Counted from the first letter of the stretch, positions 1-63,349 are shown. The stretch: DNA of 64,000 nucleotides from Porphyromonadaceae bacterium (GCA_022840285.1 JALHIE010000027.1:13080-77079), one strand, 5' to 3'. Program-made: numbers and translations. The notes: a model not told the origin generated them from the sequence alone.

Positions 1-2
1 GC

Positions 3-1202
3 TGTCCGCCTGAAGAACAACCGGTCCGTGAACTTTCAGGAGGTGAACGCCGCCGGGTGGCACTGTGCCGTCTGCTACTGCAGGAGCCCGACGTGTTGCT
101 TCTCGACGAACCGACCAACCACCTCGATGCCGAGTCGATCGACTGGCTGGAGCAGCATTTGCAGCAATACAAGGGAACGGTGATCTGCATCACGCACGAC
201 CGCTACTTCCTCGATCATGTGGCGGGCTGGATCCTCGAACTCGACCGCGGTGAGGGAATCCCCTGGAAAGGGAACTACACCTCGTGGCTGGAGCAGAAAA
301 CCAAACGGATGGAACAGGAAGAGAAGCAGGTGAGCAAGCGTCGCAAAACGCTGGAACGGGAGCTGGAATGGATCAACCTGGCGCCCAAGGCGCGCCAGGC
401 CAAAGGAAAAGCACGTCTGAACTCGTACGAGCAACTCCTGAACCAGGATCAGAAAGAGCGTGAGGAGAAACTGGAGATTTTTATTCCCAACGGCCCCCGG
501 TTAGGAAACAAGGTGATTGAAGCTAGAAACGTGAAGAAAGCCTTTGGTGACAAGCTGCTGTTCGACAACCTTAACTTCATGCTTCCACCCAACGGGATCG
601 TTGGCGTTATCGGCCCCAACGGTGCTGGAAAAACCACCCTTTTCCGATTGATACAGGGAATGGAGACCCCGGACAATGGCTCGTTCGAGGTGGGAGAGAC
701 CGTTGTTACGGCTTATGTGGATCAGGCTCACGAAGCCATCGATCCCGGTAAGACCGTCTATCAGGTGGTGTCCGGTGGATTGGAGTTTGTACGCGTGGGG
801 GGCAAAGAGGTGAACTCCCGGGCATACCTGTCGCGATTCAATTTCTCGGGAGCGGACCAGGAAAAACTGTGCGGTGTTCTTTCCGGCGGTGAACGAAACC
901 GTCTACACCTGGCATTGACACTCAAAGCCGGGGCAAACGTACTGTTGCTCGACGAGCCGACCAACGATATCGACGTGAATACCCTCCGTGCACTGGAAGA
1001 AGGGCTGGAAAACTTTGCCGGATGTGCCGTGGTAATCTCGCACGACCGGTGGTTCCTGGATCGTATCTGTACCCATATCCTTGCGTTTGAAGGAAATTCA
1101 GAAGTATTTTATTTCGAGGGTTCCTATAGCGAGTATGAGGAGAACAAGAAAATGCGCCTAGGCAACGTAGAGCCGAAAAGGGTACGCTACCGGAAGCTGT
1201 AA
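3..1202 (+). CDS. ettA: Energy-dependent translational throttle protein EttA (ABC-F ATPase), 5' end outside the window
   Basis: Frame is open from base 3 ([26 protein letters not shown]); two ABC cassettes with LSGGE signatures, LLLDEPTN Walker B, GPNGAGKT Walker A; PtIM linker [10 protein letters not shown]. Confidence 0.95.
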
Positions 1203-1216
1203 ACAGAAAATTAAGA

Positions 1217-2874
1217 ATGAGGAAGTTTCTGATTCTGTTTTTCTTGCCGGTATTAAGCCTGCCAGTACTTGCTCAATACAAAGAGGTCAGTGGGGTGCAT
1301 TTTTGTGGGCATTAATAGCACGATTTACAGTACTTGCTCAATACAAAGAGGTCAGTGGGGTAGTTATCGATGCGCAGTACAACACGCCGGTCCCCTACGC
1401 CGCGATCTTTGTGGAGCATACCAAGATCGGAGTAGTGGCCAGTAATGTGGGTGAATTCTCACTTCAGGTACCCGATTCATTGAAGAATAACCGCCTGGTG
1501 AGTGTGGGAGAAGGGTATCGACTGACCTACCTCTCGCCGGAGGACTATGGGCATGCTCCGCTTCGCATCGCGCTGGTGCCCCAGGACCGTGAGACGGCAC
1601 TGTTATCGCCGCCGGGCGACGCTGCCGTGAAACCCGGGAAGGCCGTATCGTTGCTGAGCAAGGCGGCCCGGTTTGTGATGGACGACTGGATCCCGCTGGG
1701 AAACCCGGAGACCAACACGTTCGATTTTGGCCGGATCCAGACTCTTCCCACTTACAATCCCGTCGAAGGCGTCCGCCTGCGGGCGGGAGCAGCATCCAAT
1801 TCGCGCCTGAGTCCCCATTTTTTTATGAAGGGATACTTGGCTTATGGTTTTAAAGACCAGCAGTTCAAGTACCGCGGAGAAGCCGTCTGGTCGTTCGATA
1901 AAAAAGCCTATCATGAGGACGAATTCCCCAAAAACAATATGCGCCTGGTGTATGAAAACGATCTGTTCTCCCCCGGCGAGATGCACCCGCGTTCTCTAAA
2001 CGACCTGTTGCTGATTACCTACCGGAGGTCGGTTAATGAAGCGACGTACCGTAACTTTGCCGAGATAAACTACGAGAGGGAGTACAAAAACGGTCTTGCG
2101 CACACCTTCTGGTGGCGAAAATCGAGGTTGATCCCGCAGGGAGAACTGGAGTTCCGGAGGAGTTCCGACGCCGGGCTTACCGCATACGATGGGCTGGACA
2201 CTTCCGAGGGTGGGGTGCTGCTGCGGTACTCTTTCGAAGAGGCCTATTTACAGCAAAAACGCAAACGAAAACCTGTCGATGTGACAAGTCCCGTCTTTTT
2301 TCTTTCTCACTCCATCGGTTTCACGCATCTTCCCGAAAGCGACGCGACATACCACAAAACGGAATTCTCCGCACAAAAACGTTTCTATCTGGGTTACGTT
2401 GGCCGGCTGGATGCCGTGGGAGAGTTTTCGAAAGTGTGGAATGCGGTGCCCTTTCCCCTGTTGGTCTATCCCAACCAACGCTACAAGCATCATATCGAGA
2501 GCAATGCGTTCTTTCTGAACCGGGCCCTCGAATTTGTTGCCGATGAGCAGTTCACGATTCGTACAACCTTTGTGGGCGATGATTTCCTGCTGGCAAAAAT
2601 CCCGTTGCTGGAAGCTTTGGGAACGAAAGAGTTGATCTCTCTGCGCGCTTCTTACGGCAGACTGAGCGACAAAAACGATCCGTTGCACTCCTCTTCCCGC
2701 ATCTACGACTTTCCGCCGGTATCCTACCGGTACGGCTCCCTGCCTTATGTGGAGGGAACCATCGGGATCACGAATATACTGGGCCTTTTGCGTGTGGAAT
2801 ATGTTCATCGTTTCACGTATCGCGATCATCCCGGCGCTTTGCTGGGCAGGGTGCGGGTAGACGTGACGCTGTGA
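1217..2874 (+). pseudogene. DUF5686 / carboxypeptidase-regulatory-like domain outer-membrane protein; signal peptide uncoupled from the body by a 65-bp duplication/insertion
   Basis: ATG 1217 gives signal peptide MRKFLILFFLPVLSLPVLA-QYKEVSGV and then stops; the body (YNPVEGVRLRAG, YLAYGFKDQQFKY, C-terminal beta-barrel strands) continues in another frame after the second copy of a 34-bp repeat. Confidence 0.7.
1263..1361 (+). repeat. Exact 34-bp direct repeat (1263-1296 and 1328-1361) around a 31-bp unrelated spacer
   Basis: CAGTACTTGCTCAATACAAAGAGGTCAGTGGGGT is read twice. Confidence 0.95.
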
Positions 2875-2919
2875 GAACATTGTCCCCGTCTATTTTTCTT
2901 ATCAAACGTTTTTTTGTGT

Positions 2920-2927
2920 TATCTTTG
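2920..2927 (+). promoter_or_regulatory. Bacteroidetes sigma-A -7 element upstream of tsaD
   Basis: TATCTTTG matches TAnnTTTG, 35 bp before the tsaD start. Confidence 0.6.
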
Positions 2928-2962
2928 TCGTTCCAATATTATACAACATCAGCTGAATTAAA

Positions 2963-3979
2963 TTGATTACGATTTTAGGTATAGAATCTTCCTGTGACGA
3001 TACCTCGGCAGCGGTCATCCGCGACGGTGTCATTTTGTCGAACGTGATTGCCTCCCAGGCAGTCCATGAGCGCTACGGCGGCGTAGTGCCCGAACTGGCG
3101 TCGCGCGCGCACCAGCAGAACATCATTCCTGTGGTGCACGATGCCCTGAAACAGGCCGGCATTGCGAAACAAGAAGTTTCGGCAGTGGCTTTCACGCGCG
3201 GACCGGGATTGCTGGGCTCGTTGTTGGTGGGAACCTCCTTTACGAAAGGATTTTCATCGGCGCTCAATATCCCGATGATTGAGGTGAATCACCTGCAGGC
3301 ACACGTACTGGCCCACTTCATCAAGGAGGAAGAGCACGACACGAACCAGCCGAAGTTTCCGTTTCTGTGCTTACTGGTATCGGGCGGTAACTCGCAGGTT
3401 ATTCTCGTGAAGTCGCACCGGGAGATGGAGATTATCGGTCAGACCATCGACGATGCCGCCGGTGAAGCCTTTGACAAATGCGCCAAGGTGATGGGCCTGG
3501 GTTATCCCGGAGGACCGATCGTGGATAGATTAGCCAAACAGGGCGCTCCCGGCCGGTTCACTTTCAGTAAACCCCATATCGCGGGATACGATTATAGCTT
3601 CAGCGGGTTGAAAACATCGTTTTTGTATTTCCTGCGTGATGAACTGAAAAACGATCCCGGCTTCGTCGAAAAAAATAAGGAAGACCTCTGCGCGTCCCTG
3701 CAGAAAACGATCGTCGATATTCTGATGGATAAGCTGTATCGTGCAGCAAAAGAGTTAAAAATAAAGGAAGTGGCCGTGGCGGGTGGTGTGTCTGCCAATT
3801 CAGGCTTGCGCGCTGCTTTTGAAGATTATAGTCGCCGTTATGGATGGAAAATACATATCCCGAAATTTGCCTACACTACCGATAATGCGGCTATGGTAGC
3901 TATCTCAGGGTACTACAAGTATCTCGACGGTGAGTTTTGCGGAAAAGACGCGGCACCGTACGCCAGGGTATCCATATAA
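2963..3979 (+). CDS. tsaD: tRNA N6-threonylcarbamoyltransferase subunit TsaD
   Basis: ILGIESSCDDT, HxxxH metal motif NHLQAH, LLVSGG, DDAAGEAFDK, GGVSAN, TDNAAM. Confidence 0.97.
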   Translation: MITILGIESSCDDTSAAVIRDGVILSNVIASQAVHERYGGVVPELASRAHQQNIIPVVHDALKQAGIAKQEVSAVAFTRGPGLLGSLLVGTSFTKGFSSALNIPMIEVNHLQAHVLAHFIKEEEHDTNQPKFPFLCLLVSGGNSQVILVKSHREMEIIGQTIDDAAGEAFDKCAKVMGLGYPGGPIVDRLAKQGAPGRFTFSKPHIAGYDYSFSGLKTSFLYFLRDELKNDPGFVEKNKEDLCASLQKTIVDILMDKLYRAAKELKIKEVAVAGGVSANSGLRAAFEDYSRRYGWKIHIPKFAYTTDNAAMVAISGYYKYLDGEFCGKDAAPYARVSI

Positions 3980-26205: not shown

Positions 26206-27114
26206 ATGAGACGAAAAGTATTCGTGTTTTCATTCTTTACGGCGGTTCTGGTCTCTTCACTCTTCTTCTCCTGCAACCAGGACAAGAGAAGTTTGTTTAA
26301 GGCCGACAACGGGGTAGAGTTTGATACGATAAACATAGAAAAGAAATACTTTCTGGATGATAATCCGGAAAATCCCTCGTGTAACCTGAAGCTGACTTTT
26401 GTTTATCCGGAAAGCATTGCGAATTTCGATGCGCGGGCAGCCAGAAGTGTTTTTCTAAGGACGGTGATCGGTCCGAGCTACGACAGCTTGTCCGCCAAGG
26501 AAGCCGTTGACAGGTACATTCGTAATTACATCGGGAACTACCGGAATGACGCCGGGATTTACCAGATCAACAAACCTTTGCAGGAACATGTCGGAAACAG
26601 ATCAGACGGCCCGTATGTTGCCGATGAAGAGCTCGATTATCTTCCCGAGGTGTTCTATTCCTATTACGAAACCCTTTCCGATTCCATCGTGTACAACCAG
26701 TACGGCATTATCTCGTTCCAGGTGAGACAAGTGAACAACAAGGGTGGCCGCATGTCGTACGAAACCGTCAGGAACTACGTGCTTGACTTGTCGAGCGGTG
26801 AACTGATGACCGAGGGCGAAATTTTCTCCGCCGGTTACGATTTGGCGTTGCGTCCGATCCTGCAAAACTCGTTGCTGGAAGCAAACGGCGTGAAGTCCAT
26901 CCAGGAGCTCGAAGACCTGGGCTTTTTCGGTATCGACGAGATCGTTCCGAACAAGAACTTTCTCATCACCGATAAGGGGATAACCTACACGTTCAATAAG
27001 GGAGAGTACTCGGCTTACCAGCTTCAGGTCCCGCAGGTTTTTATCCCGTATGCGGCTGTCCGTTCCCTGTTGCGTGAGAATTCCGTTGTCTCAAAATTAA
27101 CCCGGCTGAAGTGA
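26206..27114 (+). CDS. DUF3298/DUF4163 (RsiV/PdaC-like) lipoprotein
   Basis: Lipobox FFSC; NYVLDLSSGELMTEGEIF, NKNFLITDKGITYTFNKGEYS; TATATTTG promoter at 26179-26186. Confidence 0.8.
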   Translation: MRRKVFVFSFFTAVLVSSLFFSCNQDKRSLFKADNGVEFDTINIEKKYFLDDNPENPSCNLKLTFVYPESIANFDARAARSVFLRTVIGPSYDSLSAKEAVDRYIRNYIGNYRNDAGIYQINKPLQEHVGNRSDGPYVADEELDYLPEVFYSYYETLSDSIVYNQYGIISFQVRQVNNKGGRMSYETVRNYVLDLSSGELMTEGEIFSAGYDLALRPILQNSLLEANGVKSIQELEDLGFFGIDEIVPNKNFLITDKGITYTFNKGEYSAYQLQVPQVFIPYAAVRSLLRENSVVSKLTRLK

Positions 27115-27679
27115 GTGTCATCGATACATATTTCCCCTCGCTTTCCGGGAAGCAGAAAGAGCAGTTCGACGCCCTTTTTGATTTATACTCCGACTGGAAC
27201 TCCCGGATAAACGTCATTTCCCGTAAGGATATCGATAATCTTTACCTCCACCACGTTCTGCATTCATTAGCCATTGCCCGGTTCATCCGTTTTCAACCCG
27301 GTACGTCCGTCATCGACGTAGGAACCGGCGGCGGGTTTCCCGGTGTGCCGCTGGCCGTGTTTGTTGCTGGACAGCATCGGGAAGAAGGTAAAGGTAGCCC
27401 GCGAGGTTTCGCAAGCCATCGGCCTGGAAAACGTGGACTTCATCCATTCGCGTATGGAGGACGAGAAGCGGAAGTTCGACTTCGCAGTGAGCCGTGCCGT
27501 GATGCCGTTGCCTGATCTGGAGAAGATCGTGCGGAAAAACATCTCCTCCGAGCAGAGTAATGCCCTCCCCAACGGGATCATCTGCCTTAAGGGCGGTAAT
27601 CTGGCCTCCGAGCTGTCCCCGTTCAAGAACAAGGCGGAGGTGTTCTCCCTCAGCAGCTACTTCCCCGAACCTTTCTTCT
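27111..27679 (+). pseudogene. rsmG: 16S rRNA m7G527 methyltransferase RsmG, frameshifted at ~27360 and lacking its normal 3' end
   Basis: WNSRINVISRKD, HVLHSL, DVGTGGGFPG in frame 1; LDSIGKK, SRAV, LKGG in frame 2; no stop before the tRNA promoter. Confidence 0.85.
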
Positions 27680-27694
27680 TATTTTTGCAAACCC

Positions 27695-27769
27695 GAATTG
27701 TTAGCTCAGCTGGTTTAGAGCGCTGCCTTGACAGGGCAGAGGTCGTTGGTTCGAATCCAACACAGTTCA
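27695..27769 (+). tRNA. trnV: tRNA-Val(GAC)
   Basis: Acceptor stem GAATTGT/ACAGTTC, D arm TAGCTCAGCTGGTTTAGAGC, anticodon stem CTGCC/GGCAG with loop TTGACAG, T loop GGTTCGAATCC; TATTTTTG -7 box just upstream. Confidence 0.95.
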
Positions 27770-27779
27770 CTGCATAGCT

Positions 27780-28922
27780 TTACTTGTCTCCACGTGGATT
27801 CACAATCGTTCGTCGTTTAAATATCTCAATAATCTTTTCATCACTGTTAGACGAAAGAATTTCTTCCTCGGTGAACCATGTAGAGATGATTTGTTGCAAG
27901 TTTGTACGATCAAAATCGTAGATCAAATAGATTTTCCCGTCGGAGGATTGTTGTCCGTCAGGATAGGAAACACCTAATCTCTCATCAATTAATAGTCCTT
28001 TGGACCATGTTTTCCCGTCGTCTTTAGAAATAAACGCCATGAGATGTGAACGTCCGGTTTTAACAGCTACGGGTCCGTGTTTAACTAGCAACAGATTCCC
28101 CGATTGAAGTCGCCGGATAAAGAAGCGGCTACTGGTATGTTTTATTTTTGATGGATAAAGATCACTCCACGTCTTTCCTTTGTCGGACGAGAAACTTTCG
28201 CCGATACCGTATTTTGTACGGACCAGCATCCATAAGGAACCATCCTGTCGTTCAACAATCATATGTTCATCAAACTCCCTATCCTGGACAGGAACATTAA
28301 CTGCACCCTGCAATGTCCAATTTTGTCCTTGATCCCTTGTAATATATACTTTGGCGCTGTTATCTGTATAACGCCACGTCGAAATCGGAAACAGCCACTC
28401 ATCGTTGAGCAGAACAGTTGGTTTACACATCATTACTCCATCAGTTATTCTACAGGGTTTTCCCCAGTCGGTTTCTTTTTGTTCGCAATCCTCGGCTGTA
28501 ATATACCAGACACCGTATCTGTTGCCTCCATGTCCTACATTTTGAGTCCAGAAGAGCCATAATTTTCCTTCAGGATCAATCCAAACCTCCGGATCATAAG
28601 CTCGAACAGGGCCTTTTCCATCGGGGTCAATGACCAATACTTCTTCCCATATATAATCTTTTTTATTACACGTTGCCAATACGATATAATTATTGGAATC
28701 CTCGCTTGGAGTTGTCCCCGAATACCATGTTGCCCACAACCTTCCACCCTGTGTTACCGCGATGCTTGGAATTCCGGTAAAACGGCGACTGTCGGAAGAA
28801 TATCCACAGTAGTTACCAGGAGATTTAATAACTTTTGCTGTATTCAATTCAGCTTGTCCAAATCCATTTGTGACAGTGAAAATACAAAGTAGAATAATGT
28901 GTAAAAACCTGTAGCTTGCCAT
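27780..28922 (-). CDS. BNR/Asp-box exo-alpha-sialidase-like (GH33-like) secreted protein
   Basis: Start moved to ATG 28922 (MASYRFLHIILL signal peptide); RRFTGIP, Asp boxes TRDQGQNW, SSDKGKTW, SKDDGKTW; VSYPD. Confidence 0.85.
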   Translation of the reverse strand: MASYRFLHIILLCIFTVTNGFGQAELNTAKVIKSPGNYCGYSSDSRRFTGIPSIAVTQGGRLWATWYSGTTPSEDSNNYIVLATCNKKDYIWEEVLVIDPDGKGPVRAYDPEVWIDPEGKLWLFWTQNVGHGGNRYGVWYITAEDCEQKETDWGKPCRITDGVMMCKPTVLLNDEWLFPISTWRYTDNSAKVYITRDQGQNWTLQGAVNVPVQDREFDEHMIVERQDGSLWMLVRTKYGIGESFSSDKGKTWSDLYPSKIKHTSSRFFIRRLQSGNLLLVKHGPVAVKTGRSHLMAFISKDDGKTWSKGLLIDERLGVSYPDGQQSSDGKIYLIYDFDRTNLQQIISTWFTEEEILSSNSDEKIIEIFKRRTIVNPRGDK

Positions 28923-29046
28923 ATTTATTTTTATTATCAGTAATGAATTCAATGAATCGCAACTCAGGATCAGTGTTTCGGATGATCTCAAGCCCGGAAT
29001 GGAGTGGGGGAACTTTTCTGCCAGCTCTTCAGGTTCCTTGGCCTCT

Positions 29047-29118
29047 TCCCGGAGCTTGACGTCCTGTTCCGGTAAAGCGCAAAACGAGATTTCTTTGTAC
29101 CCGTCGATGGAGACTTTC
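29047..29118. repeat. Cassette-boundary repeat, copy 1
   Basis: CCCGGAGCTTGACGTCCTGTTCCGGTAAAGCGCAAAACGAGATTTCTTTGTACCCGTCGA; homologous to 33270-33343. Confidence 0.9.
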
Positions 29119-29426
29119 ATCAATAAACACGCTGCTACAAACTTAAGAGAAAAAAATCGAATAGTCTCAAATCAATCAAATAATTTTAATCCCTTACTAA
29201 CCGGACAGAAAACCCGCTAATCAAGTAGCTGTCCCCTCCGTTCAAGCTGGTTGTTGGCAGCGACTTGATTCTATTCTCATTCCGCTAGTGAATCTACAAA
29301 CTTACCAAACATCAAAATCTTCTCACTGTTTGCTTTACAAATGCAACCGGACTTTTACACACAGTTAATGATTTTGTCTAACCAGGAATAATCTTACAAA
29401 AGTGACGAAGAACCTAAAATATTGTT

Positions 29427-29665
29427 CTTTTTTGGTAGTTTTAACTACATTCACTACATTTGTGCAAAACAGAAATCGTATTTCCAGCGGTTGCCATTTT
29501 AGGTCCAAGTCAATGCGGAAAGTCCACCTTAGGCTTTTGGAGTGCTATAGAAACCACAAAACCGGATAAAACACATGTTGTTTCTCCCGTGTCAGCATCT
29601 TATCCATTTAAAAATGATGTGGAAGTTTGTGGGTTGAGTGATCTTTTGAAAAAAGTCGTATAAAT
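29427..29665 (+). pseudogene. Miniature, doubly deleted copy of the AAA-DUF4143 unit with intact promoter
   Basis: TTTG-N20-TACATTTG promoter, Walker A GPSQCGKST and last ~43 codons all match 32040-33267 with scattered SNPs. Confidence 0.9.
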
Positions 29666-29709
29666 ATAATCTGATCTCCCCGGAGCTTGACATTCTGTTC
29701 CGGCAAAGC
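29665..29709. repeat. Cassette-boundary repeat, copy 2 (left half)
   Basis: TATAATCTGATCTCCCCGGAGCTTGACATTCTGTTCCGGCAAAGC, identical to 33258-33302. Confidence 0.92.
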
Positions 29710-29796
29710 ACCATTCAAACTGAAAGATTACGAAGAATGGTACAATAAGTTGAACATTAAAAACAACAAAATTTATATAAATTATTCGTATATATT

Positions 29797-30486
29797 ATGA
29801 AAAGTAATAAAAGACTTGTGAAACTACTTACATTTTTCATGTTGTTTTTCTGCATGAATGTATGGACAAACAATCCAGACGAAAAATCATCAAATCACTT
29901 CACCATCATGGGGCTGGGAGATTCCATCACGCAAGGAGGAGAAGATGCATATCTATGTTCACTTAACCAGATGCTTGATTCGGCAGGTTACTCCGTTGAA
30001 TTTATTGGCCCAAACGTGAGGACATGCAACGGGCTGCCATTACATCATTGCGGTTTCAGCGGGAAGACAATCGAATTTCTCGAAGCCCGTATAGACACGA
30101 TTTATCGAAAGTACCCTGCGGATGTGGTATTGCTCCATGCTGGGCATAATCATACCTATACCGAAAAACCTGTTACAGGAATGATTGCCGCATATAAATC
30201 GCTCATCTGTAAAATCAGGGAAATCAATCCCGATGCAAAAATTTTTGTTGCCCAGGTGATTCCAAGCGGAAAACTGCCCAAGTATTCTTACATACCCGAA
30301 CTGAACCGCGAAATTGCCAAAATGGTCAGAAAACAGAACGACAAAAATGTTTTGTTAGTTGATCTGTCTCGCAATTTCGATTGGAAACGCTATACACATG
30401 AGGATATGGTACATCCCAACCATGCTGGTGTTGAAAAAATGGCTGGAGCATGGTACGCTGCGATACAAAAATATTTCAAGAATTAA
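29797..30486 (+). CDS. SGNH/GDSL-family hydrolase, secreted
   Basis: Block I GLGDSIT, block III HAGHN, block V DMVHPN; signal peptide. Confidence 0.9.
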   Translation: MKSNKRLVKLLTFFMLFFCMNVWTNNPDEKSSNHFTIMGLGDSITQGGEDAYLCSLNQMLDSAGYSVEFIGPNVRTCNGLPLHHCGFSGKTIEFLEARIDTIYRKYPADVVLLHAGHNHTYTEKPVTGMIAAYKSLICKIREINPDAKIFVAQVIPSGKLPKYSYIPELNREIAKMVRKQNDKNVLLVDLSRNFDWKRYTHEDMVHPNHAGVEKMAGAWYAAIQKYFKN

Positions 30487-30621
30487 TCCCTTGTTATCAG
30501 GAAAAAAACAGCAGGAAAAACAGTATCTTTGCAAAACAATGATTATATACTATAAAATAACATGAGCGTTTGCTTTTAATTGATTACTTCTGCACAATAA
30601 ACCAATTATCATCATAAAAAC

Positions 30622-31842
30622 ATGAAGAAAACGATTTTTTTGCTGATTGCTGTGTTCTGTTTATCAGCTACAGTCAAGAATGAGCCGAAAGACTCCAAGA
30701 CAAGTTATGCAAAAACAGTGCTGCAACCCTACGTGGACAGTGGTCAGTTGGCCGGTGCCATTAGTGTATTCTACAAGGACGGCGTGCAGGAAACCTGCTG
30801 CATAGGCTATGCCGACGTATCAAAAAAGCGCCCAATAAAGATGGACAATGTATTCATGCAATGTTCACAGACAAAAGGCTTCTGCGGAGTGACAATCGCC
30901 AAGCTGGTGGAAGAGGGCCGTATTTCACTCGACGACCCTGTTTCAAAGTATCTTCCGGAGTTTGTGGAATTATGGGTGCTGGATGCAGCAAATGACAGTA
31001 CCAAGACCCTTCGTAAGGCCAAGAACGTCCTTACCATCCGTATGGTGCTCAACCATACTGGAGGCTTTCCCTTCGAAATTAGTGCCAAGCGCTCCGACGT
31101 CAGGGGTGGCGGATGGTCCGGAGGAGCTCCTCTTCGCCAGACAGCCTCCATCGCTGCCGCATCGCCCATCATGTTCGAGCCCGGTACCCGCGAGCTCTAT
31201 TCCAATACGGGAATTGACATTGGTGCAGCTATTGTTGAGGTCGTCACAGGGATGAAGTGGGAGGTATATCTCAAGCAGGAGGTGCTTGATCCCTTGGGAA
31301 TGAAGTCCACATGGTTCTGGCCTACCGACAAACAGCTTAAGAACAAGATAGAACTCTATGAGAACAAAGAAAATGCTCCAGCTGAGTGGCGTGAAGAAAT
31401 GCCATGGCAGCAACGGCCTTATAATGACTCCCATGTATTTGCTTCTGCCGGTGCGGGTCTCTGGACTACCGCCAATGACCAGCTGAAGTTCTATAAGATG
31501 CTGATGAATCTTGGCTTGGGAGAGAATGGCGTGCGCATCTTGAAAGAAGAAACCGTGAAGAATCTTCTCGCTCTTTCCACCCGTCCCAAGGGTCTGGGCG
31601 GCTATTCCCTCGGCTTGTCAGCACCAGAACAGGACAGCGAAGACGCTTGGTTTGGTCATGGTGGTGCCTGGGGTACTAACTGTTCCGTCAATTGGCACAA
31701 GAAAGAGCTTAAGCTCTGGGTGGTCCAATCCGCCGGAGGAGGACAGCCATGGCTTGCCGAAATCAGTAAAGCTGCCGAGAAGTTCTTCGCTCAACCATTA
31801 AGCAAATCTGGCGTTGATGCATATACTGGAAGGACCGAATAA
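30622..31842 (+). CDS. Serine hydrolase, class C beta-lactamase / family VIII esterase fold, secreted
   Basis: SxxK (SQTK), YxN (YSN), LNHTGG, FGHGGAWG; TATCTTTG promoter at 30524-30531. Confidence 0.88.
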   Translation: MKKTIFLLIAVFCLSATVKNEPKDSKTSYAKTVLQPYVDSGQLAGAISVFYKDGVQETCCIGYADVSKKRPIKMDNVFMQCSQTKGFCGVTIAKLVEEGRISLDDPVSKYLPEFVELWVLDAANDSTKTLRKAKNVLTIRMVLNHTGGFPFEISAKRSDVRGGGWSGGAPLRQTASIAAASPIMFEPGTRELYSNTGIDIGAAIVEVVTGMKWEVYLKQEVLDPLGMKSTWFWPTDKQLKNKIELYENKENAPAEWREEMPWQQRPYNDSHVFASAGAGLWTTANDQLKFYKMLMNLGLGENGVRILKEETVKNLLALSTRPKGLGGYSLGLSAPEQDSEDAWFGHGGAWGTNCSVNWHKKELKLWVVQSAGGGQPWLAEISKAAEKFFAQPLSKSGVDAYTGRTE

Positions 31843-31889
31843 TTCATTTCATGAGTCGGCTTGAATGATATCCGTGTCAGACGGTCCTC

Positions 31890-31933
31890 GACATTCTGTT
31901 CCGGCAAAGCGCGAAACGAGATTTCTTTGTACC
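31890..31933. repeat. Cassette-boundary repeat, copy 3 (right half)
   Basis: GACATTCTGTTCCGGCAAAGCGCGAAACGAGATTTCTTTGTACC. Confidence 0.92.
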
Positions 31934-32039
31934 ATCTTGCTTGATTTTTATTTGTTACAATCATAAGACTTCAATTCTCTTTATCCGGTTACAATAGTTT
32001 TCTTTTTTCCCTTTCCCTGGGAACAAAGCGGCTGTCTCT

Positions 32040-32071
32040 TTTGGTAGTTTTAAATACATTCACTACATTTG
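32040..32071 (+). promoter_or_regulatory. Bacteroidetes sigma-A promoter of the AAA gene
   Basis: TTTG-N20-TACATTTG fits the TTTG-N19-21-TAnnTTTG consensus. Confidence 0.8.
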
Positions 32072-32097
32072 TGTAAAATAGAAATTGTATTTATGAT

Positions 32098-33267
32098 ATG
32101 CAAAAACTGATCGACAGAAAAATAGAAACATTTGTAAAAGAGAATCTAAGCGTATTTCCTGCGGTTGTCATTTTAGGCCCAAGGCAATGCGGAAAGTCCA
32201 CCTTGGTGAAGATGCTCTATCAAAATTCGAATGCCTATCTATATTTGGACCTTCAGAACCTGGATGACTTGAACAAGTTGAGAGAGCCTATGTTATTCTT
32301 CCAGGCTAATCAGGATGTAACAATTTGTTTGGACGAGATTCAGTTAGTACCGGAACTTTTTTCTGTCTTACGAAGTGAAATAGACCGTCACCGTCGTCCA
32401 GGACGGTTCATTTTGCTTGGATCTGCTTCGCAGGACCTTATACAGAAAACGTCAGAATCGCTAGCCGGAAGAGTCGGGCTTATTGAACTCACACCCTTTA
32501 CAATTGAAGAAGTTGAGCAAAACATAGATTTTGAATTGAATAAGTTCTGGCTTCGTGGAGGATATCCTGATAGCTATCTCGCATCATCTGAACAAGGAAG
32601 TGTACTTTGGAGAGAAAATTTCCTTAGAACATATGTAGAACGGGATATTCCACAGCTCGGATTTCAAATTCCCGCATTGCAACTTCGTCGTCTGCTGACT
32701 ATGTGTGCGCACAATCAAGGGCAACTTTTTAATTCGTCCAAATTGGGAGAATCGCTAGGTGTAACCTATCAAACTATTCGCCGGTATATCGACCTGATGG
32801 AACAGACCTTTATTATCCGTTCGCTACCGCCATTTGAAAAGAATATCAAGAAACGTCTGGTTAAATCCCCAAAAATTTTTGTGAGAGATAGTGGGTTATT
32901 ACATAGGCTGCTACAAGTGGATGATTTCAATTCACTAATGGGCAACCCTGTTTTCGGATCATCTTGGGAAGGATTTGTAATTGAAAACATCATTTCTTCA
33001 TTGAGAGATTGTAAGTTTTCTTTTTATCGCAGTGCTACAGGGGATGAGTTAGACTTGCTTATTGAGAGGGGTTCCCGAACGATAGCGGTAGAATGTAAAG
33101 CCTCATCGGCACCACAGGTGACCAAAGGCTTTTGGAGAGCTCTAGAAACCACAAAACCGGATAAAACATATATTGTTTCTCCCGTATCAGCATCTTATCC
33201 ATTTAAAAATGATGTGGAAGTTTGCGGGTTGAGTGATTTTTTGAAAAAGGTCGTAACTATAATCTGA
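32098..33267 (+). CDS. AAA_14 ATPase with C-terminal DUF4143 domain
   Basis: GPRQCGKST, CLDEIQ, LLGSAS, RGGYP, KSPKIFVRDSGL, ELDLLIE, AVECKAS. Confidence 0.93.
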   Translation: MQKLIDRKIETFVKENLSVFPAVVILGPRQCGKSTLVKMLYQNSNAYLYLDLQNLDDLNKLREPMLFFQANQDVTICLDEIQLVPELFSVLRSEIDRHRRPGRFILLGSASQDLIQKTSESLAGRVGLIELTPFTIEEVEQNIDFELNKFWLRGGYPDSYLASSEQGSVLWRENFLRTYVERDIPQLGFQIPALQLRRLLTMCAHNQGQLFNSSKLGESLGVTYQTIRRYIDLMEQTFIIRSLPPFEKNIKKRLVKSPKIFVRDSGLLHRLLQVDDFNSLMGNPVFGSSWEGFVIENIISSLRDCKFSFYRSATGDELDLLIERGSRTIAVECKASSAPQVTKGFWRALETTKPDKTYIVSPVSASYPFKNDVEVCGLSDFLKKVVTII

Positions 33268-33343
33268 TCTCCCCGGAGCTTGACATTCTGTTCCGGCAAA
33301 GCGCGAAACGAGATTTCTTTGTACCCGTCGACGGAGAACTTCA
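33258..33343. repeat. Cassette-boundary repeat, copy 4 (full length)
   Basis: Contains the sequences of copies 1, 2 and 3 contiguously. Confidence 0.92.
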
Positions 33344-33473
33344 GCATTTTGTTTACGCTTTGGAGATTTGTGAATGCAAATTCACCGTGCTCATCGGTCA
33401 TGGTTTCGTTGATCAGTACCGAGTCCGGCAGGGTGTAGACAGTTTTTATCTTGGCGCTCATGGGTATGATCAA
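33270..33473 (-). pseudogene. Fragment of a carboxypeptidase-regulatory-like domain from an outer-membrane protein gene; source of the boundary repeat
   Basis: VYTLPDSVLINETMTDEHGEFAF...LKFSVDGYKEISF; truncated where the AAA unit begins. Confidence 0.65.
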
Positions 33474-33622
33474 CCCGCTTTTTTCTTTTCACTGGAAACT
33501 AAGCGGCCGTCAGGTACATTTCCACCGGCCTTTTACGCAAATTGTTTTGTCTAACTTGGGACTGTCCTACAAAAAGAGAAGGTTACAAGGGTAAGAATTA
33601 TTTTGATATAACAAACCAAATG

Positions 33623-33644
33623 TAAACAAAATTGTTTATTTTTG
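33623..33644 (+). promoter_or_regulatory. Palindromic operator overlapping the -7 box of the HigA-like gene
   Basis: TAAACAA-AA-TTGTTTA is a perfect inverted repeat overlapping TATTTTTG. Confidence 0.65.
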
Positions 33645-33659
33645 TAGAAAGAATTATTT

Positions 33660-34094
33660 ATGAATAATCTTATCGACATAATAAAAGGTATTCATCCTGG
33701 GAAATTTATTGAAAGGGAATTGAAAAAGAAGCACCTCACTCAACGTGCGTTAGCTGATGAGACAGGTATTCCATTTCAAACTATTAATGCCATTATCGCA
33801 GGTAGGCGTAGTTTGACTACTAAGCAAGCCTTAAAAATAGATCAGATATTAGGGTATGAAGAAGGCTTTTTCGCTATTCTTCAAACTCACTATGATATTA
33901 AGCAATACAAGGAAAAAGATTTAGCTAGTATTTATACAGAAGCTCCCCACATTCGCAAATCTTTATTTTGGGATACTGATTTCAATAAAATTAATTGGGC
34001 TAAATATAAAAATGCAGTTATCAAACGTGTTTTTGAAAGAGGAAGCAAAGACGAAATAGAAGAAATTACCCGATATTATAATCTATCAAATTAG
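33660..34094 (+). CDS. HigA/VapI-family antitoxin HTH fused to a DUF6922-like C-terminus
   Basis: IKGIHPG, LTQRALA, INAIIAGRRSLT; C-terminal SLFWDTDF...VIKRVFERG. Confidence 0.85.
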   Translation: MNNLIDIIKGIHPGKFIERELKKKHLTQRALADETGIPFQTINAIIAGRRSLTTKQALKIDQILGYEEGFFAILQTHYDIKQYKEKDLASIYTEAPHIRKSLFWDTDFNKINWAKYKNAVIKRVFERGSKDEIEEITRYYNLSN

Positions 34095-34226
34095 ACAATG
34101 GCTATCAAATAACTCCCTTTATAGTCACTTTGCAGGTAACCGGTAATGGAAGGGCGAGTTTTGAGTTACCTGGAAAGAAAGTAGTACTTTCCTGATGGCC
34201 AGAAAAATCAAGAAGTAGTTACTCGG

Positions 34227-34387: not shown

Positions 34388-34463
34388 ATTTGAATTGAGT
34401 TTTGATCGGAGAAACCATTGAGAATACTTATCAGATTACCACTCTCTAAAGAAAGCAACAAGC

Positions 34464-34494
34464 TTTGAAATGAAATTATAATGTTGTATTTTTG
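34464..34494 (+). promoter_or_regulatory. Sigma-A promoter of the SIR2 gene
   Basis: TTTG-N19-TATTTTTG. Confidence 0.75.
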
Positions 34495-34561
34495 AATTGA
34501 GATCTGGTATCTTTTTGGATGAAATAAACAAATTAAAAGAGTGCGGTAAAATTTAAACCTT

Positions 34562-56801: not shown

Positions 56802-57542
56802 ATGGACAGGCTTAGGATTCAAAATAATTCAACTACACTGGTAGATCAGGTCGAGGACAGGCTTTTGAACTATTTCAAAGAGAAGGACTTGCAAAAAGGA
56901 GATGCTATTCCGAATGAAATGGAATTAACCGTCTCATTGGGGGTGTCGAGGAGTGTAGTACGGGAGGCATTAAGCCGACTGAAGATGATGGGAATAGTGG
57001 AGACACGCACACGACGGGGCATGGTACTTTCCGAGCCTTCTATATTCGGCGGAATGAAACGTGCTGTTGATCCGAGAATTCTAAGTGAAGATACCCTCTT
57101 TGATATTCTCGGATTTAGGATTGTTCTGGAAATAGGCATTTGTAGTGAAATATTCCGAAAAATTACTCCTGATGATATTGCAGATCTGGAAGAGATTGTG
57201 AATGTAGGAATCATGTATGAAAACAACGAATATGCTCCTTTTAGTGAATTTGCTTTTCACACAAAGCTTTATAAAATAACTGGCAACAAAACTATCTCCG
57301 AATTCCAGAATATCATTCATCCTGTGATGACATTTGTGAAGGACAAATTTCAGGAGTTTCTGGCACCCATTAATATCCGTTTAAAAGAGGAAGGGCGGAT
57401 TGTAACCCATCAGGACTTGCTACAGTTACTAAAAGATGGAGACGAAGACAGGTATAGAAAGGCCTTGGAGGAGCATTTTGAGGTTTACAGAATTTTTATC
57501 AGTCAAAGAAATCAATATCACATTGCTCAGCAAAACGGTTGA
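56802..57542 (+). CDS. FadR/GntR-family transcriptional regulator
   Basis: GDAIPNEMEL...GVSRSVVREAL wHTH plus FCD domain. Confidence 0.92.
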   Translation: MDRLRIQNNSTTLVDQVEDRLLNYFKEKDLQKGDAIPNEMELTVSLGVSRSVVREALSRLKMMGIVETRTRRGMVLSEPSIFGGMKRAVDPRILSEDTLFDILGFRIVLEIGICSEIFRKITPDDIADLEEIVNVGIMYENNEYAPFSEFAFHTKLYKITGNKTISEFQNIIHPVMTFVKDKFQEFLAPINIRLKEEGRIVTHQDLLQLLKDGDEDRYRKALEEHFEVYRIFISQRNQYHIAQQNG

Positions 57543-57649
57543 TTTGATCGGTACAGTGCAATGTTGCTATTTAAAGTGTTTATAAGGCTTTTTCGTCCTT
57601 GTAATCACCAGCCGAACACAAAAAGTATATTTACCAATTAAAAATATCT

Positions 57650-58561
57650 ATGAACAATTACAAAAAACTAAAAGGGCTAATTGCTGCAACCTTTACACCC
57701 GTTGATACTAACAGCGATATAAATTATTCTGTGATCAGAAAATATGCACAACATATTAAAGATTCCGGAATATCGGGTGTATTTGTTTGCGGGACGACAG
57801 GAGAGTTTACTTCCCTCACCACTGTCGAAAGAAAACTGATCTTGGAGGAATGGATAAAACGTGGTGAAGGAGACTTTCAAATTATTGCCCATGTGGGCAG
57901 CAATAACCAGCGCGAGGCAATGGAGCTGGCACGTCATGCTGCAGTGAAAGGCGCAGATGGAATCGGATGTATCGCCCCTTCTTTTTTCAAGCCTGAAAAA
58001 GTGAAAGATCTGATCGATTTCTTTACGCCCATTGCTTCTTCCGCTCCTCAATTGCCATTCTATTACTACAACATGCCCTCCATGACCGGGGTAAACCTTT
58101 CGGTTGCACAATTTCTTCACGAAGGGAAAAAAACTATTCCCAACCTGGCCGGAGTGAAGTTTACACACAACAACCTGATGGAAATGGGCGACTGTATTCA
58201 GCTGGATAACGGGGCATTTGAGGTGTTGCATGGCTTCGACGAGACACTGATTTGTGGATTAGCACTCGGAGCCGTAGCCGGTGTGGGAAGTACGTATAAC
58301 TATATACCCCATGTTTATCTGAATATTCTGAAATCTATGGAAAGTAACGATGTGGAAACGGCGCGTGCCTTTCAGATGCAGTCGGTAGAAATGGTGAAAA
58401 TCATTATTCAATATGGAGGTGGCGTGAGAGGCGGAAAAGCCATCATGAATCTGATTGGAATCGAATGTGGACCCTGCCGCCCTCCTTTTGCCACATTCGA
58501 AAGGGAAGAGTATGATGCTCTCAGGGAGAACCTCCAGGGCATTGGTTTATTGGTAAAATAG
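57650..58561 (+). CDS. N-acetylneuraminate lyase-like (DHDPS/NAL family) aldolase
   Basis: GTTGE, YYYNMP, Schiff-base Lys in GVKFT, GVGSTYN. Confidence 0.85.
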   Translation: MNNYKKLKGLIAATFTPVDTNSDINYSVIRKYAQHIKDSGISGVFVCGTTGEFTSLTTVERKLILEEWIKRGEGDFQIIAHVGSNNQREAMELARHAAVKGADGIGCIAPSFFKPEKVKDLIDFFTPIASSAPQLPFYYYNMPSMTGVNLSVAQFLHEGKKTIPNLAGVKFTHNNLMEMGDCIQLDNGAFEVLHGFDETLICGLALGAVAGVGSTYNYIPHVYLNILKSMESNDVETARAFQMQSVEMVKIIIQYGGGVRGGKAIMNLIGIECGPCRPPFATFEREEYDALRENLQGIGLLVK

Positions 58562-58640
58562 AGAAGGGAGTGTGTCCTCTAAACAATACCCCCTTCTGGA
58601 AGAATTTAAAAACACAATTATTTTTAAAATCTATACAAAG

Positions 58641-61600
58641 ATGAGAAAAATTTATCGATTTTTGGCCTTATTAACTGGTATAATCTTTTCAGTTGCTTTT
58701 CTCCAGGCACAGGAGATAATGGTTAAAGGTGAAGTGCGCGATAACGAAGGTGAAACTTTACCTGGTGTTTCTGTGGTTGTGAAAGGAACCACACATGGTA
58801 CCGTCACTGATATTGACGGGAATTATGCGTTGGCCGTTACTTCCGGTTCAACACTGATTTTTTCATATGTGGGTTATCAAACATTGGAAGTGAGAGTGAC
58901 AAGCTCACCGGTCATCAATGTTGTTTTAAACACATCGACAGTAGGTCTTGATGAAGTGGTGGTCGTGGGATATGGAACCCAGTCACGCCGTACCATCACG
59001 TCTGCCATTACCAAAGTGGGTGGGGAGGTATTACAAAATGTACCGGTAAACACGGTAGGAGAAGGATTGAAAGGGAAAATTTCCGGAACACGTATTTATT
59101 CAAACAACAATACGCCAGGTGAAGATGCAACCATTCGGATTCGCGGCGGTTCCTCCATCAACAAGAGCAATGAACCACTCATCCTGGTAGATGGAGTTGA
59201 AAGAGCGTTTAGTGGGATAAATCCGAACGATATTGAATCAATAGAAGTTCTTAAAGATGCCTCATCCACAGCTATATACGGTTCAAGAGCTTCCAATGGG
59301 GTTGTTTTGATTACAACGAAAAAAGGATCTGTTGGCAAAGCTCCGAACATCACTTTCGAAGCAAACATGGCATTGCAGGAAGCAGGGACACTCTATAAGT
59401 TCATGAACGCCAGGGATTATCTGAGTATTGTTCGTCCGGCAGTAGCTGCAGGTCCCAATGCAAAGTATAATTCAATGGATGGTTATTCCGCCAGTTCCGG
59501 CAATACAGCTACCTCCATCTATTCTACTCGTTATCTGGGAGAAGGAGAGACTATCCCGGCAGGTTATTATTCCATGCCCGATCCAATTGATCCGACAAAA
59601 ACGCTGATATTTCAGGATAACAACTTTCAGGATGAAATCTACAAGCAGGCAGTTTGGCAAAATTATTATGTCGGACTTGATGGGGGAAATGAAGGGATTC
59701 GTTACAATGTCAGCCTTGGCTATACCGACGACGCCGGTGTTGCCATAGCCACTGGGTTCGACCGATTGAATTTACGCAGTAACATCGATGTAAATATCAA
59801 TAAACATTTGTCACTTGTCGCGGGATTCGACTACTCCAGAGCTAATTCACAGGAGTACCCTAATCAGATGAATGTCATTTCAAGGGGTTTGGCGACACCA
59901 CCCACTCAGAAAAAGTACAATGATGATGGAACCCCCACCAAAGGATACAATGCCACCTCACCCAATCCACTCTGGTATGCCTATTATAATGATCAAAGCC
60001 GAGAAGATAAAAGATTGTCAGCTTTTGGTAAACTTACTTACCGCATTTTTGATGATCTGAAAATTGAATCGCAATTATCAACCTACAACCATCATTACCA
60101 AAGCAACAGCTTTCAGAGAGCCAATGAATTTAACGGACTCCGTCCAGCCAGTTCATCCTTTGGCGAGCTTAAACGAGACAAACTGGAGATCTATGCAACC
60201 TATATTAAGGGGTTAGACGATCATTCATTATCTATAATGGGAGGACACTCTTATCAGAAGGACAGTAACCAATCCCTGGGGGCTTCCGTTGATGGGGCTA
60301 GTTCTGATAAGGTGCCTACACTGACCGCAGGCCCCAATAAGAAGGATGCAACCAGCAATTTTACTCAGGATGTGACGATTGGTTATTTCGGTCGTTTGAC
60401 ATATGATTTTCAAAAAAAATATCTGCTTTCTGCAACATTTCGGGAGGATGCTTCCTCACGTTTTGCAAAAGGAAAACAGTGGGGATTCTTTCCAGGAGCA
60501 TCAGCCGGATGGATTATCTCGGATGAACCCTTTATGCAGGGAATAAAAAATCTTGATAACTTGAAAATCAGAGTTAGTTACGGCCAAACAGGGAACAATG
60601 CAATTGGTCTGTACGATGCGTACGGAAGGTATTCCACCAATGCAAGATATGATGGATTTGCGGGCATTGTAGCTTCTACTATGCCAAATATGGATCTGAC
60701 CTGGGAGACCTCTACGCAACTCGACCTGGGATTCGATCTGTCACTTTTCAAGAATCGATTCACAGTCTCAGCAGATTATTTCGATAAAATCACAGAAAAC
60801 CTACTTTTTAGCAAAGAGTTGCCAAATACCACCGGTTTTTCTTCTGTACAAACAAATATTGGAGAAGTAAAATTTTATGGATTCGACCTGGAGATTGGTT
60901 CGACCAATATTCGTACAAAAGATTTTGAATGGACTTCGAAATTCACCTGGAGTTTTGTAAAAAACAAGGTGCTTAAATTGCCAGATAACGGACGAGACAA
61001 GAATCGTATCGGGGGTATCACCCTAGCCGACGGAACGGCTTTCGGTGGAACTGCTGAAGGTGAGTCGCTTTACCGTTATTATGGATATATGGTAGACTAT
61101 ATCATTGAAACGGAAGAACAAGCCAAAACAGCGATGTATGATAATTCGGCAAAAGGTTATCTCCCTTCAGACGGGAAGAAAATTGCCGGAAGAAAGCATA
61201 TCGGAGACTATGAATGGAAGAACAGGCCAGGTAGTCAGACCCGAAACGATAAAGATTACATTGACAGTCAAGATCAGTTTTTTCTGGGGTACACTGTTCC
61301 ACACTCTACAGGAGGTTTAAATAACAATCTTACATTCAGAAATATATCTCTAAATGTTTTTGTTGATTGGGCATTGGGACACTCAATCAATAACAACTCT
61401 GAAATGCGATATTTTATGAACACCTTTGCCAATAATTACACATTGATTGATAAGGTAAAACAAACATGGAAAGCTCCCGGTGATAAAACAAAATATGCTC
61501 GTTTTACAGCCAATGATCCGGATGACGGAAATGCCAATTTTAGTCGTACATCCAACATCTTCAACTATAAAGGTGATTACCTTTGTATTCGTGAAATTAG

Positions 61601-61805: not shown

Positions 61806-61819
61806 ATCACACTACAAAA

Positions 61820-63283: not shown

Positions 63284-63291
63284 AAAATAAT

Positions 63292-63328
63292 AAGAAGGAG
63301 ACTCTCTAATTTCATGAGTCTCCCTCTT
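63292..63328 (+). terminator. Intergenic stem-loop after susD
   Basis: AAGAAGGAGACTC ... GAGTCTCCCTCTT. Confidence 0.6.
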
Positions 63329-63349
63329 ATTTAAAATAACCATAAAAGA

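Follow-up and report, generated by a model that had tools for sequence, protein, structure and literature searches.

The window analysed here, a stretch of 64,000 nucleotides, comes from a metagenome-assembled genome (MAG) of the genus Petrimonas (G000; 3.65 Mb in 256 contigs). Between 29.0 and 33.5 kb it holds a row of unrelated genes separated by copies of a 21-bp core, GACRTYCTGTTCCGGYAAAGC, and this row is likely to be a decaying tandem array of genes that borders a Petrimonas defence island, not a capture site. A scan with a degenerate pattern gave four matches to the core in the window, all on the plus strand (29058, 29689, 31890 and 33282), and no match in any of 100 shuffled sequences; the whole assembly, scanned in the same way, returned these four sites and no others. 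The core of the first copy differs by three single-nucleotide changes inside the 21 bp. The copies of the core lie within partial copies, c1 to c4, of a small gene that we call S and that is intact in the type strain P. sulfuriphila DSM 16547 (G018). Positions in S are counted from the stop-codon side, in the plus orientation of the window. From left to right, the array consists of the following features.

29020–29116, minus strand: S relic c1, S nucleotides 11–108, 92.9% identical to P. sulfuriphila S; the 3' third of the gene, with the native C-terminus ...KLREEAKEPEELA
29346–29433, plus strand: ghost of a HigA-like module, its left edge (~33524–33574) joined to its right edge 'aaaagtgacgaagaacctaaaatattgttc', with the gene deleted
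29426–29674, plus strand: mini-AAA, what is left of an AAA_14-DUF4143 gene: promoter, Walker-A region and the final ~47 codons; a 67-codon open reading frame (ORF) at 29460–29663
29675–29709, minus strand: S relic c2, S nucleotides 35–69 only, 100% identical to P. sulfuriphila-type S
29710–30512, plus strand: SGNH/GDSL hydrolase segment; gene at 29797–30486 (Pfam Lipase_GDSL_2, 1.4e-18); lineage-specific
30513–31886, plus strand: beta-lactamase-family serine hydrolase module; gene at 30622–31842 (PF00144, 1.4e-55); with its own promoter region
31887–32034, minus strand: S relic c3, S nucleotides 46–92 fused through TTTGTACC microhomology to the start codon and ~100 bp of the S upstream region
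32035–33267, plus strand: AAA_14-DUF4143 ATPase, intact and including its promoter; gene at 32098–33267 (Pfam DUF4143 3.3e-45, AAA_14 6e-29)
33268–33480, minus strand: S relic c4, S nucleotides 35–209 and 259–295
33481–34198, plus strand: HigA-like module; HTH_3 and DUF6922 gene at 33660–34094 (Pfam); 98.9% identical to positions 96–1018 of the type-strain contig L026

The four copies and their setting had been described in an initial annotation of this DNA, and both descriptions stand: the first on the scans and shuffles given above, and the second on Pfam, which places the copies among BNR_2, mini-AAA, SGNH plus Beta-lactamase-family, and AAA_14-DUF4143 genes. The intact ATPase gene is 99.4% identical to that of P. 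sulfuriphila and matches PDC-S01 (PADLOC, 5.4e-95), an unvalidated candidate for a single-gene defence system; PDC-S01 is described as an ATPase fused to a PD-(D/E)XK-superfamily domain, very common in prokaryotes and frequently transferred (PMC12988326). Scans of genome and metagenome contigs with the pattern gave loci of the Petrimonas type; further matches in L028, L030, L032, L033, L034 and L042, which are unrelated and mostly GC-rich genomes, were discarded as due to chance after inspection of their flanks.

Four truncated copies of one small gene

In the type strain S has 108 codons (327 bp; L027 3100–3426) and encodes the protein MVQKILFSILLSGLIIPMSAKIKGTVSDSNNNPIQYAKVAVYSLPDSVLINETTTDEHGEFAFTNLQSVNKMLKFSVDGYKEISFRALPEQNVKLRGEAKEPEELAVK, with a signal peptide and a CarboxypepD_reg domain. 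This intact form scores 47.5 bits against CarboxypepD_reg (cut-off 32.3) and 39.6 bits against CarbopepD_reg_2 (cut-off 32.2) in Pfam. The window copy c4 reaches 24.7 bits, which is under the cut-off because the copy is truncated, and the minus-strand ORF at 33195–33473 gives weak CarboxypepD_reg matches. The initial annotation was thus right about a carboxypeptidase-regulatory-like domain, but the gene is not the stump of a long outer-membrane gene. S is kept as a stand-alone gene of 108–118 codons in Petrimonas and in a sister genus, g16, and is therefore a small gene in its own right. It is 45–52% identical to the N-terminus of frames of ~780 residues, which are presumably TonB-dependent receptors. 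No homologue of S was found in the window's own genome beyond the locus except one such receptor N-terminus, and a DNA search for the S region in 60 relatives matched one other species, represented by P. sulfuriphila DSM 16547.

The four copies are truncated differently. Copy c1 is the most divergent, its 5' two-thirds having been replaced after 'tcatca'. The residues EEAKEPEE that follow it had been taken for the continuation of a gene that begins at c4; they are indeed the native C-terminus of S, but c1 and c4 overlap at 89% identity over about 75–79 nucleotides (repeat D1) and so must be separate copies and not the halves of one gene split by insertions, a possibility that is thereby ruled out. 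On their left, copies c2 and c4 join the AAA 3' end at identical junctions; on its right, c2 abuts the SGNH segment. Copy c4 is without the last 34 nucleotides, a 50-bp internal block, the signal peptide and the start codon, and its ORF (33195–33473) reads into the AAA 3' end. The intersection of the four ranges is S nucleotides 49–69, which is exactly the 21-bp core. The 21-bp repeat is the overlap of four differently truncated copies of one gene.

Contigs of the P. sulfuriphila type conserve the order S1, beta-lactamase, S2, AAA, S3, higA, followed by varying cargo, in which a fourth copy, S4, may occur. Nearly full secondary copies without the internal deletion are present in two loci: S2 of L132, a complete genome, extends over S[-1..295] and S4 of L135 over S[-1..293]. 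S3, which corresponds to c4, and S4 both lack the 50-bp internal block and are cut off on the 5' side at 'gatcaacccgc'.

Junctions and the repeated unit

Undeleted forms of the junctions are found in relatives. For the junction between the AAA gene and S, L044 and L048 read 'gatctccacgaattct...T2...ggcctctccccggag', where T2 is a terminator, and the window reads 'gatctccccggag'; over a longer span the forms are '...taatctgaTCTCCacgaattctactttttcataaaagtcaactgcttttactttacggccag...ggccTCTCCccggagcttgacattctg' in L044 and L048 and '...taatctgaTCTCCccggagcttgacattctg' in c2 and c4 of the window. The window form arose by loss of 75 bp between TCTCC repeats, and with them went the S stop codon and T2. 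For the junction between the beta-lactamase module and S, the ancestral form 'gtcctcGACATTCTactttttt...T2...agcttGACATTCTgttccgg' (over a longer span '...gagcttGACATTCTgttccgg') is present in L027, L037, L046 and L132, and the window has a single GACATTCT, the product of a deletion between GACATTCT octamers. The P. sulfuriphila-type equivalents of c3 (L027, L037 and L046) hold 75 bp more, consisting of S nucleotides 1–48 and T2, and L132, with the same left junction, carries S[-1..295] undeleted at this place; c3 thus owes its left edge to a secondary deletion. At the right edge of c3, 'ctTTGTACCcgtcgac' ('ctttgtacc', codons DGYKE) is joined to 'ttTTGTACCat' at the S start codon, and this TTTGTACC deletion has removed most of the gene. 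For the three junctions that make the boundaries, the ancestor is undeleted in relatives and the window form is a deletion between direct repeats of 5–8 bp. In G112, a g16 genome, the same beta-lactamase flank is joined to S at nucleotide 87. Taken together, the junctions fall at S nucleotides 35, 46–49, 69, 87, 92, 108, 169, 209/259 and 293–295, and are spread over the whole gene.

The 2.2-kb segment with the SGNH and beta-lactamase genes lies between c2 and c3 and has neither a transposase nor terminal repeats. The 21-bp repeat around it is not a target duplication or an att core, because in P. sulfuriphila the beta-lactamase gene already adjoined a longer copy of S; a target-site duplication (TSD) of the kind left by a transposon is ruled out by this longer ancestral junction. 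An att-flanked element would have the same core at both ends in a fixed position, and here only the c2/c3 pair forms such a repeat, with junctions that range from S nucleotide 35 to 295. No contig among the metagenome loci has a precise empty site at the core. The SGNH DNA was found in G000 only among 151 genomes of the family; of ten assemblies that carry it, nine have the same context and one has it beside an insertion sequence (IS). This one other context (L118) is IS-mediated and uninformative as to a donor.

Homology between the repeats does not stop at the core. The mini-AAA and its promoter are 91–93% identical to positions 32035–33255 of the intact AAA module (direct repeats D2, D4 and D5), the middle having been lost through internal deletions (tblastn matches to AAA query residues 19–36 and 342–388). 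The ghost HigA-like module matches the intact one on its left side (29346–29401 against 33524–33574, 71% identity, E 2e-5), and its right side (29397–29469) is 95.9% identical to L050 and 92% identical to L026. In the type strain 40 bp of AAA sequence survive as a relic, with the S1 upstream region on one side and the beta-lactamase gene on the other, and the right flank of the beta-lactamase module, 'ctgtcctcgacattct', is homologous to the AAA 3' flank, 'ctgatctccacgaattct', which indicates that the beta-lactamase module replaced the 3' end of one AAA copy. In L132 a damaged S copy runs straight into the AAA promoter ('aagcggccgtc|ttttttggtag'), and the window and the type strain have the HigA-like module at exactly this position, between 'aagcggccgtc' and the start point of the AAA promoter; the corresponding R-AAA junction of L132 is uninterrupted. 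The junction from higA to S4 in the type strain is that of a higA-AAA-T2 order from which AAA has been removed between T-runs, and in L050 the higA flank is followed by AAA. Terminator T2 is common to S2, S4 and the L044 copy, and the S upstream region is also repeated.

The repeats therefore run beyond the supposed site into neighbouring genes and regulatory DNA, as in a tandem duplication, and the copies show the marks of decay: they are truncated differently, their deletion junctions lie at short repeats (TCTCC, GACATTCT, TTTGTACC and T-runs), and undeleted relatives exist. From these alignments we infer at least three tandem units with the putative order S, upstream region, (higA), AAA, T2, which decayed differently in different strains. 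The locus lacks what defines an integron, an att-flanked element or a transposon with a TSD, and has most of what defines tandem segmental duplication with decay, which is a known type of structure. It resembles tandem segmental duplication followed by microhomology-mediated (RecA-independent) decay in its head-to-tail multi-gene units, varied truncation, deletion junctions at 4–8 bp and undeleted relatives. It differs in that the copies are unusually divergent (3–10%), are interleaved with foreign beta-lactamase-family and SGNH genes and lie at the border of a defence island that swaps its cargo.

Origin of the array

The repeating unit would measure ~1.7–2.4 kb and would comprise S (on the minus strand) with its upstream region, an optional HigA-like HTH-DUF6922 gene, the AAA_14-DUF4143 gene (the PDC-S01 candidate) and T2 before the next S. 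At least three such units would have stood in tandem at the tRNA-Val-proximal edge of the defence island. Their number probably rose by homology-driven events, such as tandem duplication, unequal crossing-over or non-allelic recombination, together with recombination with DNA of sister lineages in which the S copies and the conserved right flank served as anchors. The units would then have decayed by many small deletions between direct repeats of 4–8 bp. The beta-lactamase-family gene would have taken the place of the 3' end of one AAA copy, and the SGNH gene would have been added beside it in the lineage of the window. Each of the four S copies was cut back at different points, so that 21 bp are all that they still have in common, and a dedicated site-specific system is not needed. 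The order of these events, and multiplication in situ as opposed to import, are our reading of the sequences.

Several observations weigh against this account. Taken alone, a perfect 21-bp direct repeat around the 2.2-kb SGNH/beta-lactamase segment resembles an att or target duplication, and three left junctions and one right junction lie within ~40 bp of one another. The left junction of the SGNH segment, 'caaagc|accattc', is unexplained, with no donor context in the 151 family genomes; 'ttccggcaaagc' is a candidate microhomology partner. Copies within the one array differ by 3–10%, which fits duplication in situ only if it is old, the alternative being import of foreign alleles. Lastly, in the type strain S3 is split by a 2.5-kb IS21-family element, inserted at 'ccggagttt|gacattctg' (L027 1–122 and L026 1–110; contigs 19 and 24), immediately 5' of the 21-bp core, which may reflect local fragility or an insertion preference near the core. 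The element (G018:C38, L078) encodes IstA of 512 residues and IstB of 251 residues, has the ends TGT...ACA and made a 6-bp TSD, GAGTTT, a genuine one in contrast to the 21-bp repeat; its insertion in S3 is the cause of the break in the type-strain assembly at this point. A copy of the same IS is present elsewhere in the window's own genome (G000:C173:16232-18783).

The divergence of the copies leads to the alternative that survives best, which is possible although we do not regard it as probable: that the units did not multiply in situ but were each brought in from another strain or species, either by homologous recombination with crossovers in a resident, non-allelic S copy and in the conserved right flank or by Campbell-type insertion of a circle with an S copy on it. 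S would then provide portable homology for the stacking of modules without an integrase. This overlaps with the account of a decaying tandem array and differs from it only in how the copy number rose. The 3–10% between copies within the array is similar to the divergence between species. Identity between the window's genome and the type strain is mosaic: 87–99% over the left 20 kb and 91–97.6% just left of the tRNA, then 99.2–99.4% over the block from beta-lactamase to higA and 99.3–99.6% over the right flank. Such a pattern fits a recent homologous exchange through flank homology, for which an S copy possibly provided a crossover point. In c2 the core has the P. sulfuriphila form, and the mini-AAA beside it is 7% divergent from the intact AAA gene. 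As the initial annotation had anticipated, the gene content next to the S copies differs between strains and species, and the defence modules after the last S copy differ as well: P. sulfuriphila-type contigs have S4 with an SLFN-type helicase, AbiEii with McrBC-like genes and no S4, or S4 with Vsr, HATPase and Z1. In the window the cargo is a 21-kb set of SIR2/Dsr2-like, BREX-type and PIN_8 genes (34198–55524), and in the type strain it is the 11-kb set with S4, Vsr, HATPase and Z1 (L026 1018–12063); the two are wholly different between flanks of 99% identity, with the right break inside a KilA-N-domain ORF. Against import as the source of the copies, S3 and S4 share derived lesions (the 5' truncation and the 50-bp deletion) that speak for the origin of these two, at least, by duplication of an already damaged copy within a lineage, and no circular intermediate was seen. 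Copy c1 and the mini-AAA are 7–10% divergent and the neighbouring block is 99% identical to that of another species, but the relics are short and have too few sites for a tree.

The sister genus g16 also bears on import. The beta-lactamase module, 99.2% identical to that of P. sulfuriphila, is present at 83–97% identity in 15 of 43 g16 genomes, where its native context is downstream of mnmE (L084–L093). In two g16 genomes it is present at 96–97% identity beside Petrimonas-like S or S-upstream fragments, and pieces of the array thus cross genus borders. In one g16 genome, whose own S is ~63% identical to that of Petrimonas, Petrimonas-like S fragments (80–85%) accompany the beta-lactamase gene. 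S is itself duplicated in g16: in G132 a 539-bp unit that consists of the whole S gene, a terminator and a promoter occurs twice at 93% identity around a 408-codon oxidoreductase-like gene (L115, G132:C45; 5175–5711 and 7138–7682), and G033 (L140), of a second species, is laid out likewise except for an internal deletion in one of its S copies. The duplications in G132 and G033 imply that duplication of S is recurrent or ancient. Two S copies in G136 were uninformative, as a region of ~10 kb is duplicated there at 99.9% identity across contigs. G112 (L114, G112:C94; 5340–8494) has an S fragment, the beta-lactamase gene in reverse, a 357-residue gene and a second S fragment, an arrangement that cannot be derived from the Petrimonas one in any simple way.

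Accretion anchored on homology is plausible, with gene content around S that varies between strains and S duplicated in the sister genus. We suggest tentatively, and with some doubt, that S acts as a reusable homology anchor, so that incoming Petrimonas- or Proteiniphilum-like DNA recombines at any copy and modules are stacked, swapped or deleted without an integrase; the further idea that duplication of S around passenger genes recurs independently in two genera is equally tentative. Integrase-free defence-island hotspots exchange their cargo by homologous recombination between conserved flanking genes. The present locus is like them in having variable defence cargo between 99%-identical flanks and no integrase that we could find, but here the left flank gene is multiplied inside the island, and several non-allelic anchors could stack or delete modules.

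Site-specific cassette capture, which the initial annotation had proposed as repeated capture at one site, is improbable. On this account a recombinase encoded elsewhere would recognize the CCGGA-N14-TCCGG core in S (CCGGAGCTTGACATTCTGTTCCGG) and insert circular cassettes successively, joined at GACATTCTGTTCCGGCAAAGC. The four core copies do separate unrelated genes, the segment with the two hydrolases is bracketed by an exact 21-bp repeat, gene content beside the S copies varies by strain, and the beta-lactamase module moves between genera with Petrimonas-like S fragments. The structure of the junctions speaks against capture: the three borders have longer ancestral junctions from which the window forms arose by microhomology deletion, the junctions are scattered over the whole 327-bp gene, the repeats are multi-gene units that run into neighbouring genes, and the 21-bp repeat is younger than the arrival of the beta-lactamase gene. 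A linked recombinase, the search for which the annotation had recommended, is likewise missing; Pfam searches of 40 ORFs (27–56 kb and several flanking ORFs) gave no integrase, resolvase or transposase domain, and the genes called in ten variant loci, up to 8 kb from S, include no recombinase gene. The inverted repeat CCGGA-N14-TCCGG is present in three of the four copies, by descent, but c3 is without the left arm. It has arms of 5 bp, lies in codons for LPEQNVKLR and folds as DNA at −4.7 kcal/mol, no better than shuffled sequences (z = +0.3); its left arm is missing from the g16 S gene, which is duplicated nonetheless. We keep a small place for capture by a recombinase acting in trans because several junctions cluster within ~40 bp and because of the IS21-family insertion immediately 5' of the core.

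The comparison with known systems that work by site-specific recombination leads to the same result. Superficially the locus is like an integron cassette array, with its row of unrelated genes and a recurring short sequence with a small inverted repeat. An integron has intI, attI and Pc, but the 40 ORFs and ten loci described above hold no Phage_integrase or other recombinase domain, and no attI was found. Nor is there anything like attC, a site of 57–141 bp with imperfect inverted repeats and a folded bottom-strand hairpin, the only symmetry being the 5-bp inverted repeat. The modules are not promoterless, co-oriented, single-ORF cassettes: AAA, beta-lactamase and higA carry upstream regions of their own, the S relics lie on the opposite strand and the junction positions are not fixed. 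The earlier statement that neither a transfer RNA (tRNA) gene nor an attC site is involved is upheld, the repeated sequence being coding DNA of the duplicated gene S. Tandem accretion of islands at the 3' end of a tRNA or other gene, through att duplication by a tyrosine recombinase, also leaves partial copies of the target gene as direct repeats, and a tRNA is nearby here, but the repeated gene is not a tRNA, the repeats were once near-whole genes with flanks (330–540 bp), their borders are deletions, and the linked integrase of an integrative element was found neither in the window ORFs nor in the variant loci. The rAID-1 arrays (recombinase-associated acquired interbacterial defence) of Bacteroidales are reportedly headed by a conserved tyrosine recombinase and are said to hold immunity genes and toxin fragments. 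Like them, the present locus is an array of accessory and defence-type genes in Bacteroidia with recurring intergenic or fragment sequences, but it has neither the tyrosine recombinase at its head nor the immunity and toxin-fragment content.

A candidate integron-like system is accordingly struck off, and its 21-bp repeat and small palindrome are by-products of duplication and decay. The case illustrates a trap, in that a short perfect repeat that recurs between unrelated genes can be the remnant of longer copies that have been eroded differently, and only relatives with undeleted junctions reveal it. What keeps a modest interest is the build of the defence-island border, where a repeated flanking gene and a PDC-S01 candidate lie beside cargo that is swapped between species at 99% flank identity.

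It is very unlikely that the AAA_14-DUF4143 gene, with its ATPase and PD-(D/E)XK-like domains, is a selfish element of the homing type, which would place new copies of itself beside the S 3' end and drag S fragments along. At least three S copies do come after AAA copies or relics, with one and the same AAA-stop/T2 junction; the AAA module begins with an identical left edge, 'ttttggtagtttta', in three different upstream contexts; and PDC-S01 genes are very abundant and often transferred (PMC12988326). However, L039 has the same AAA gene (98.9%) with another 3' neighbour, and there no S copy follows; apart from the receptor N-terminus, no S homologue was found outside the locus in the window's own genome, although other AAA_14 paralogues were not mapped; the module edges coincide with the promoter and stop codon, which selection alone would keep; and no terminal repeats were found.

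An assembly artefact, in which repeats were collapsed or chimerically joined in a MAG, is next to inconceivable despite the fragmentation of the window's own genome and the break of the type-strain assembly at the locus (for which the IS21 copy is responsible), as order and junctions recur unchanged in nine or more assemblies that come from different samples and projects (L043, L119, L120 and L122–L127 have the same junctions), and L121 (GCA_022838265.1), a 6.3-kb contig from a different MAG that spans all four copies, matches 27679–33478 at 100% identity.

The island and its flanks

Three further features mark the borders of the variable region.

27695–27770, plus strand: tRNA-Val(GAC), found with ARAGORN; a conserved landmark to the left of the variable region, with 100% identity to the tRNA in P. 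sulfuriphila L027
27780–28922, minus strand: BNR_2 sialidase-like gene (Pfam BNR_2, 9e-28), with a probable start MASYRF... at 28922
34457–34530, plus strand: relic ~80% similar to the right end of an IS21-family element (full element G018:C38), just upstream of the SIR2/Dsr2-like gene

The mechanical ORF of the BNR_2 gene continues in frame through c1 to 29123, and gene callers split over it, giving 380 residues or, in fused form, 446 residues. P. sulfuriphila lacks the gene here and has in its place rsgA, a 357-residue gene and 1.2 kb. The IS21-family relic is probably a scar at the point where the island cargo changes.

To the right of the array lies the defence island, with HigA-like, SIR2/Dsr2-like, PIN_8, RhuM and KilA-N genes and a BREX-type set (PglZ, an SNF2-type helicase, a methylase, DUF6079/BrxC and BrxF). 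The HigA-like module is the last block in common with P. sulfuriphila before the swapped defence genes. Its HTH_3-DUF6922 gene stands without a partner in both the window and the type strain; in L129–L131 (3533–4208) it is followed by a 215-residue AbiEii nucleotidyltransferase, the expected toxin partner.

A rearranged form of the array was seen in L118 (ERZ27298585 k141_29238; 327–1961 and 1990–3201), which has c1, mini-AAA, c2 and SGNH at 99.8% identity, a DDE_Tnp_1 transposase gene that is inserted in the beta-lactamase promoter and cuts the array on the right, and an unrelated left flank. This is an IS-mediated rearrangement of the same array.

On the left of the region, rsmG (GidB; 27111–27777) is broken into two frames and at its end continues into tRNA-Val. 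Intact forms of 206 codons are present in P. sulfuriphila and in L119 and L120, which are other assemblies of the window's own species, and the split is either a strain-specific frameshift or deletion or a consensus error in this MAG. A GntR/DHDPS/SusCD locus begins at 56.8 kb. The sialidase-like gene (27780–29123) and the SGNH gene (29797–30486) stand at the left edge of the island, and GntR, DHDPS-family (NanA-like), SusC and SusD genes stand at the right (56802–64000); the two groups may be one sialic-acid-type utilization system that has been split by the island.

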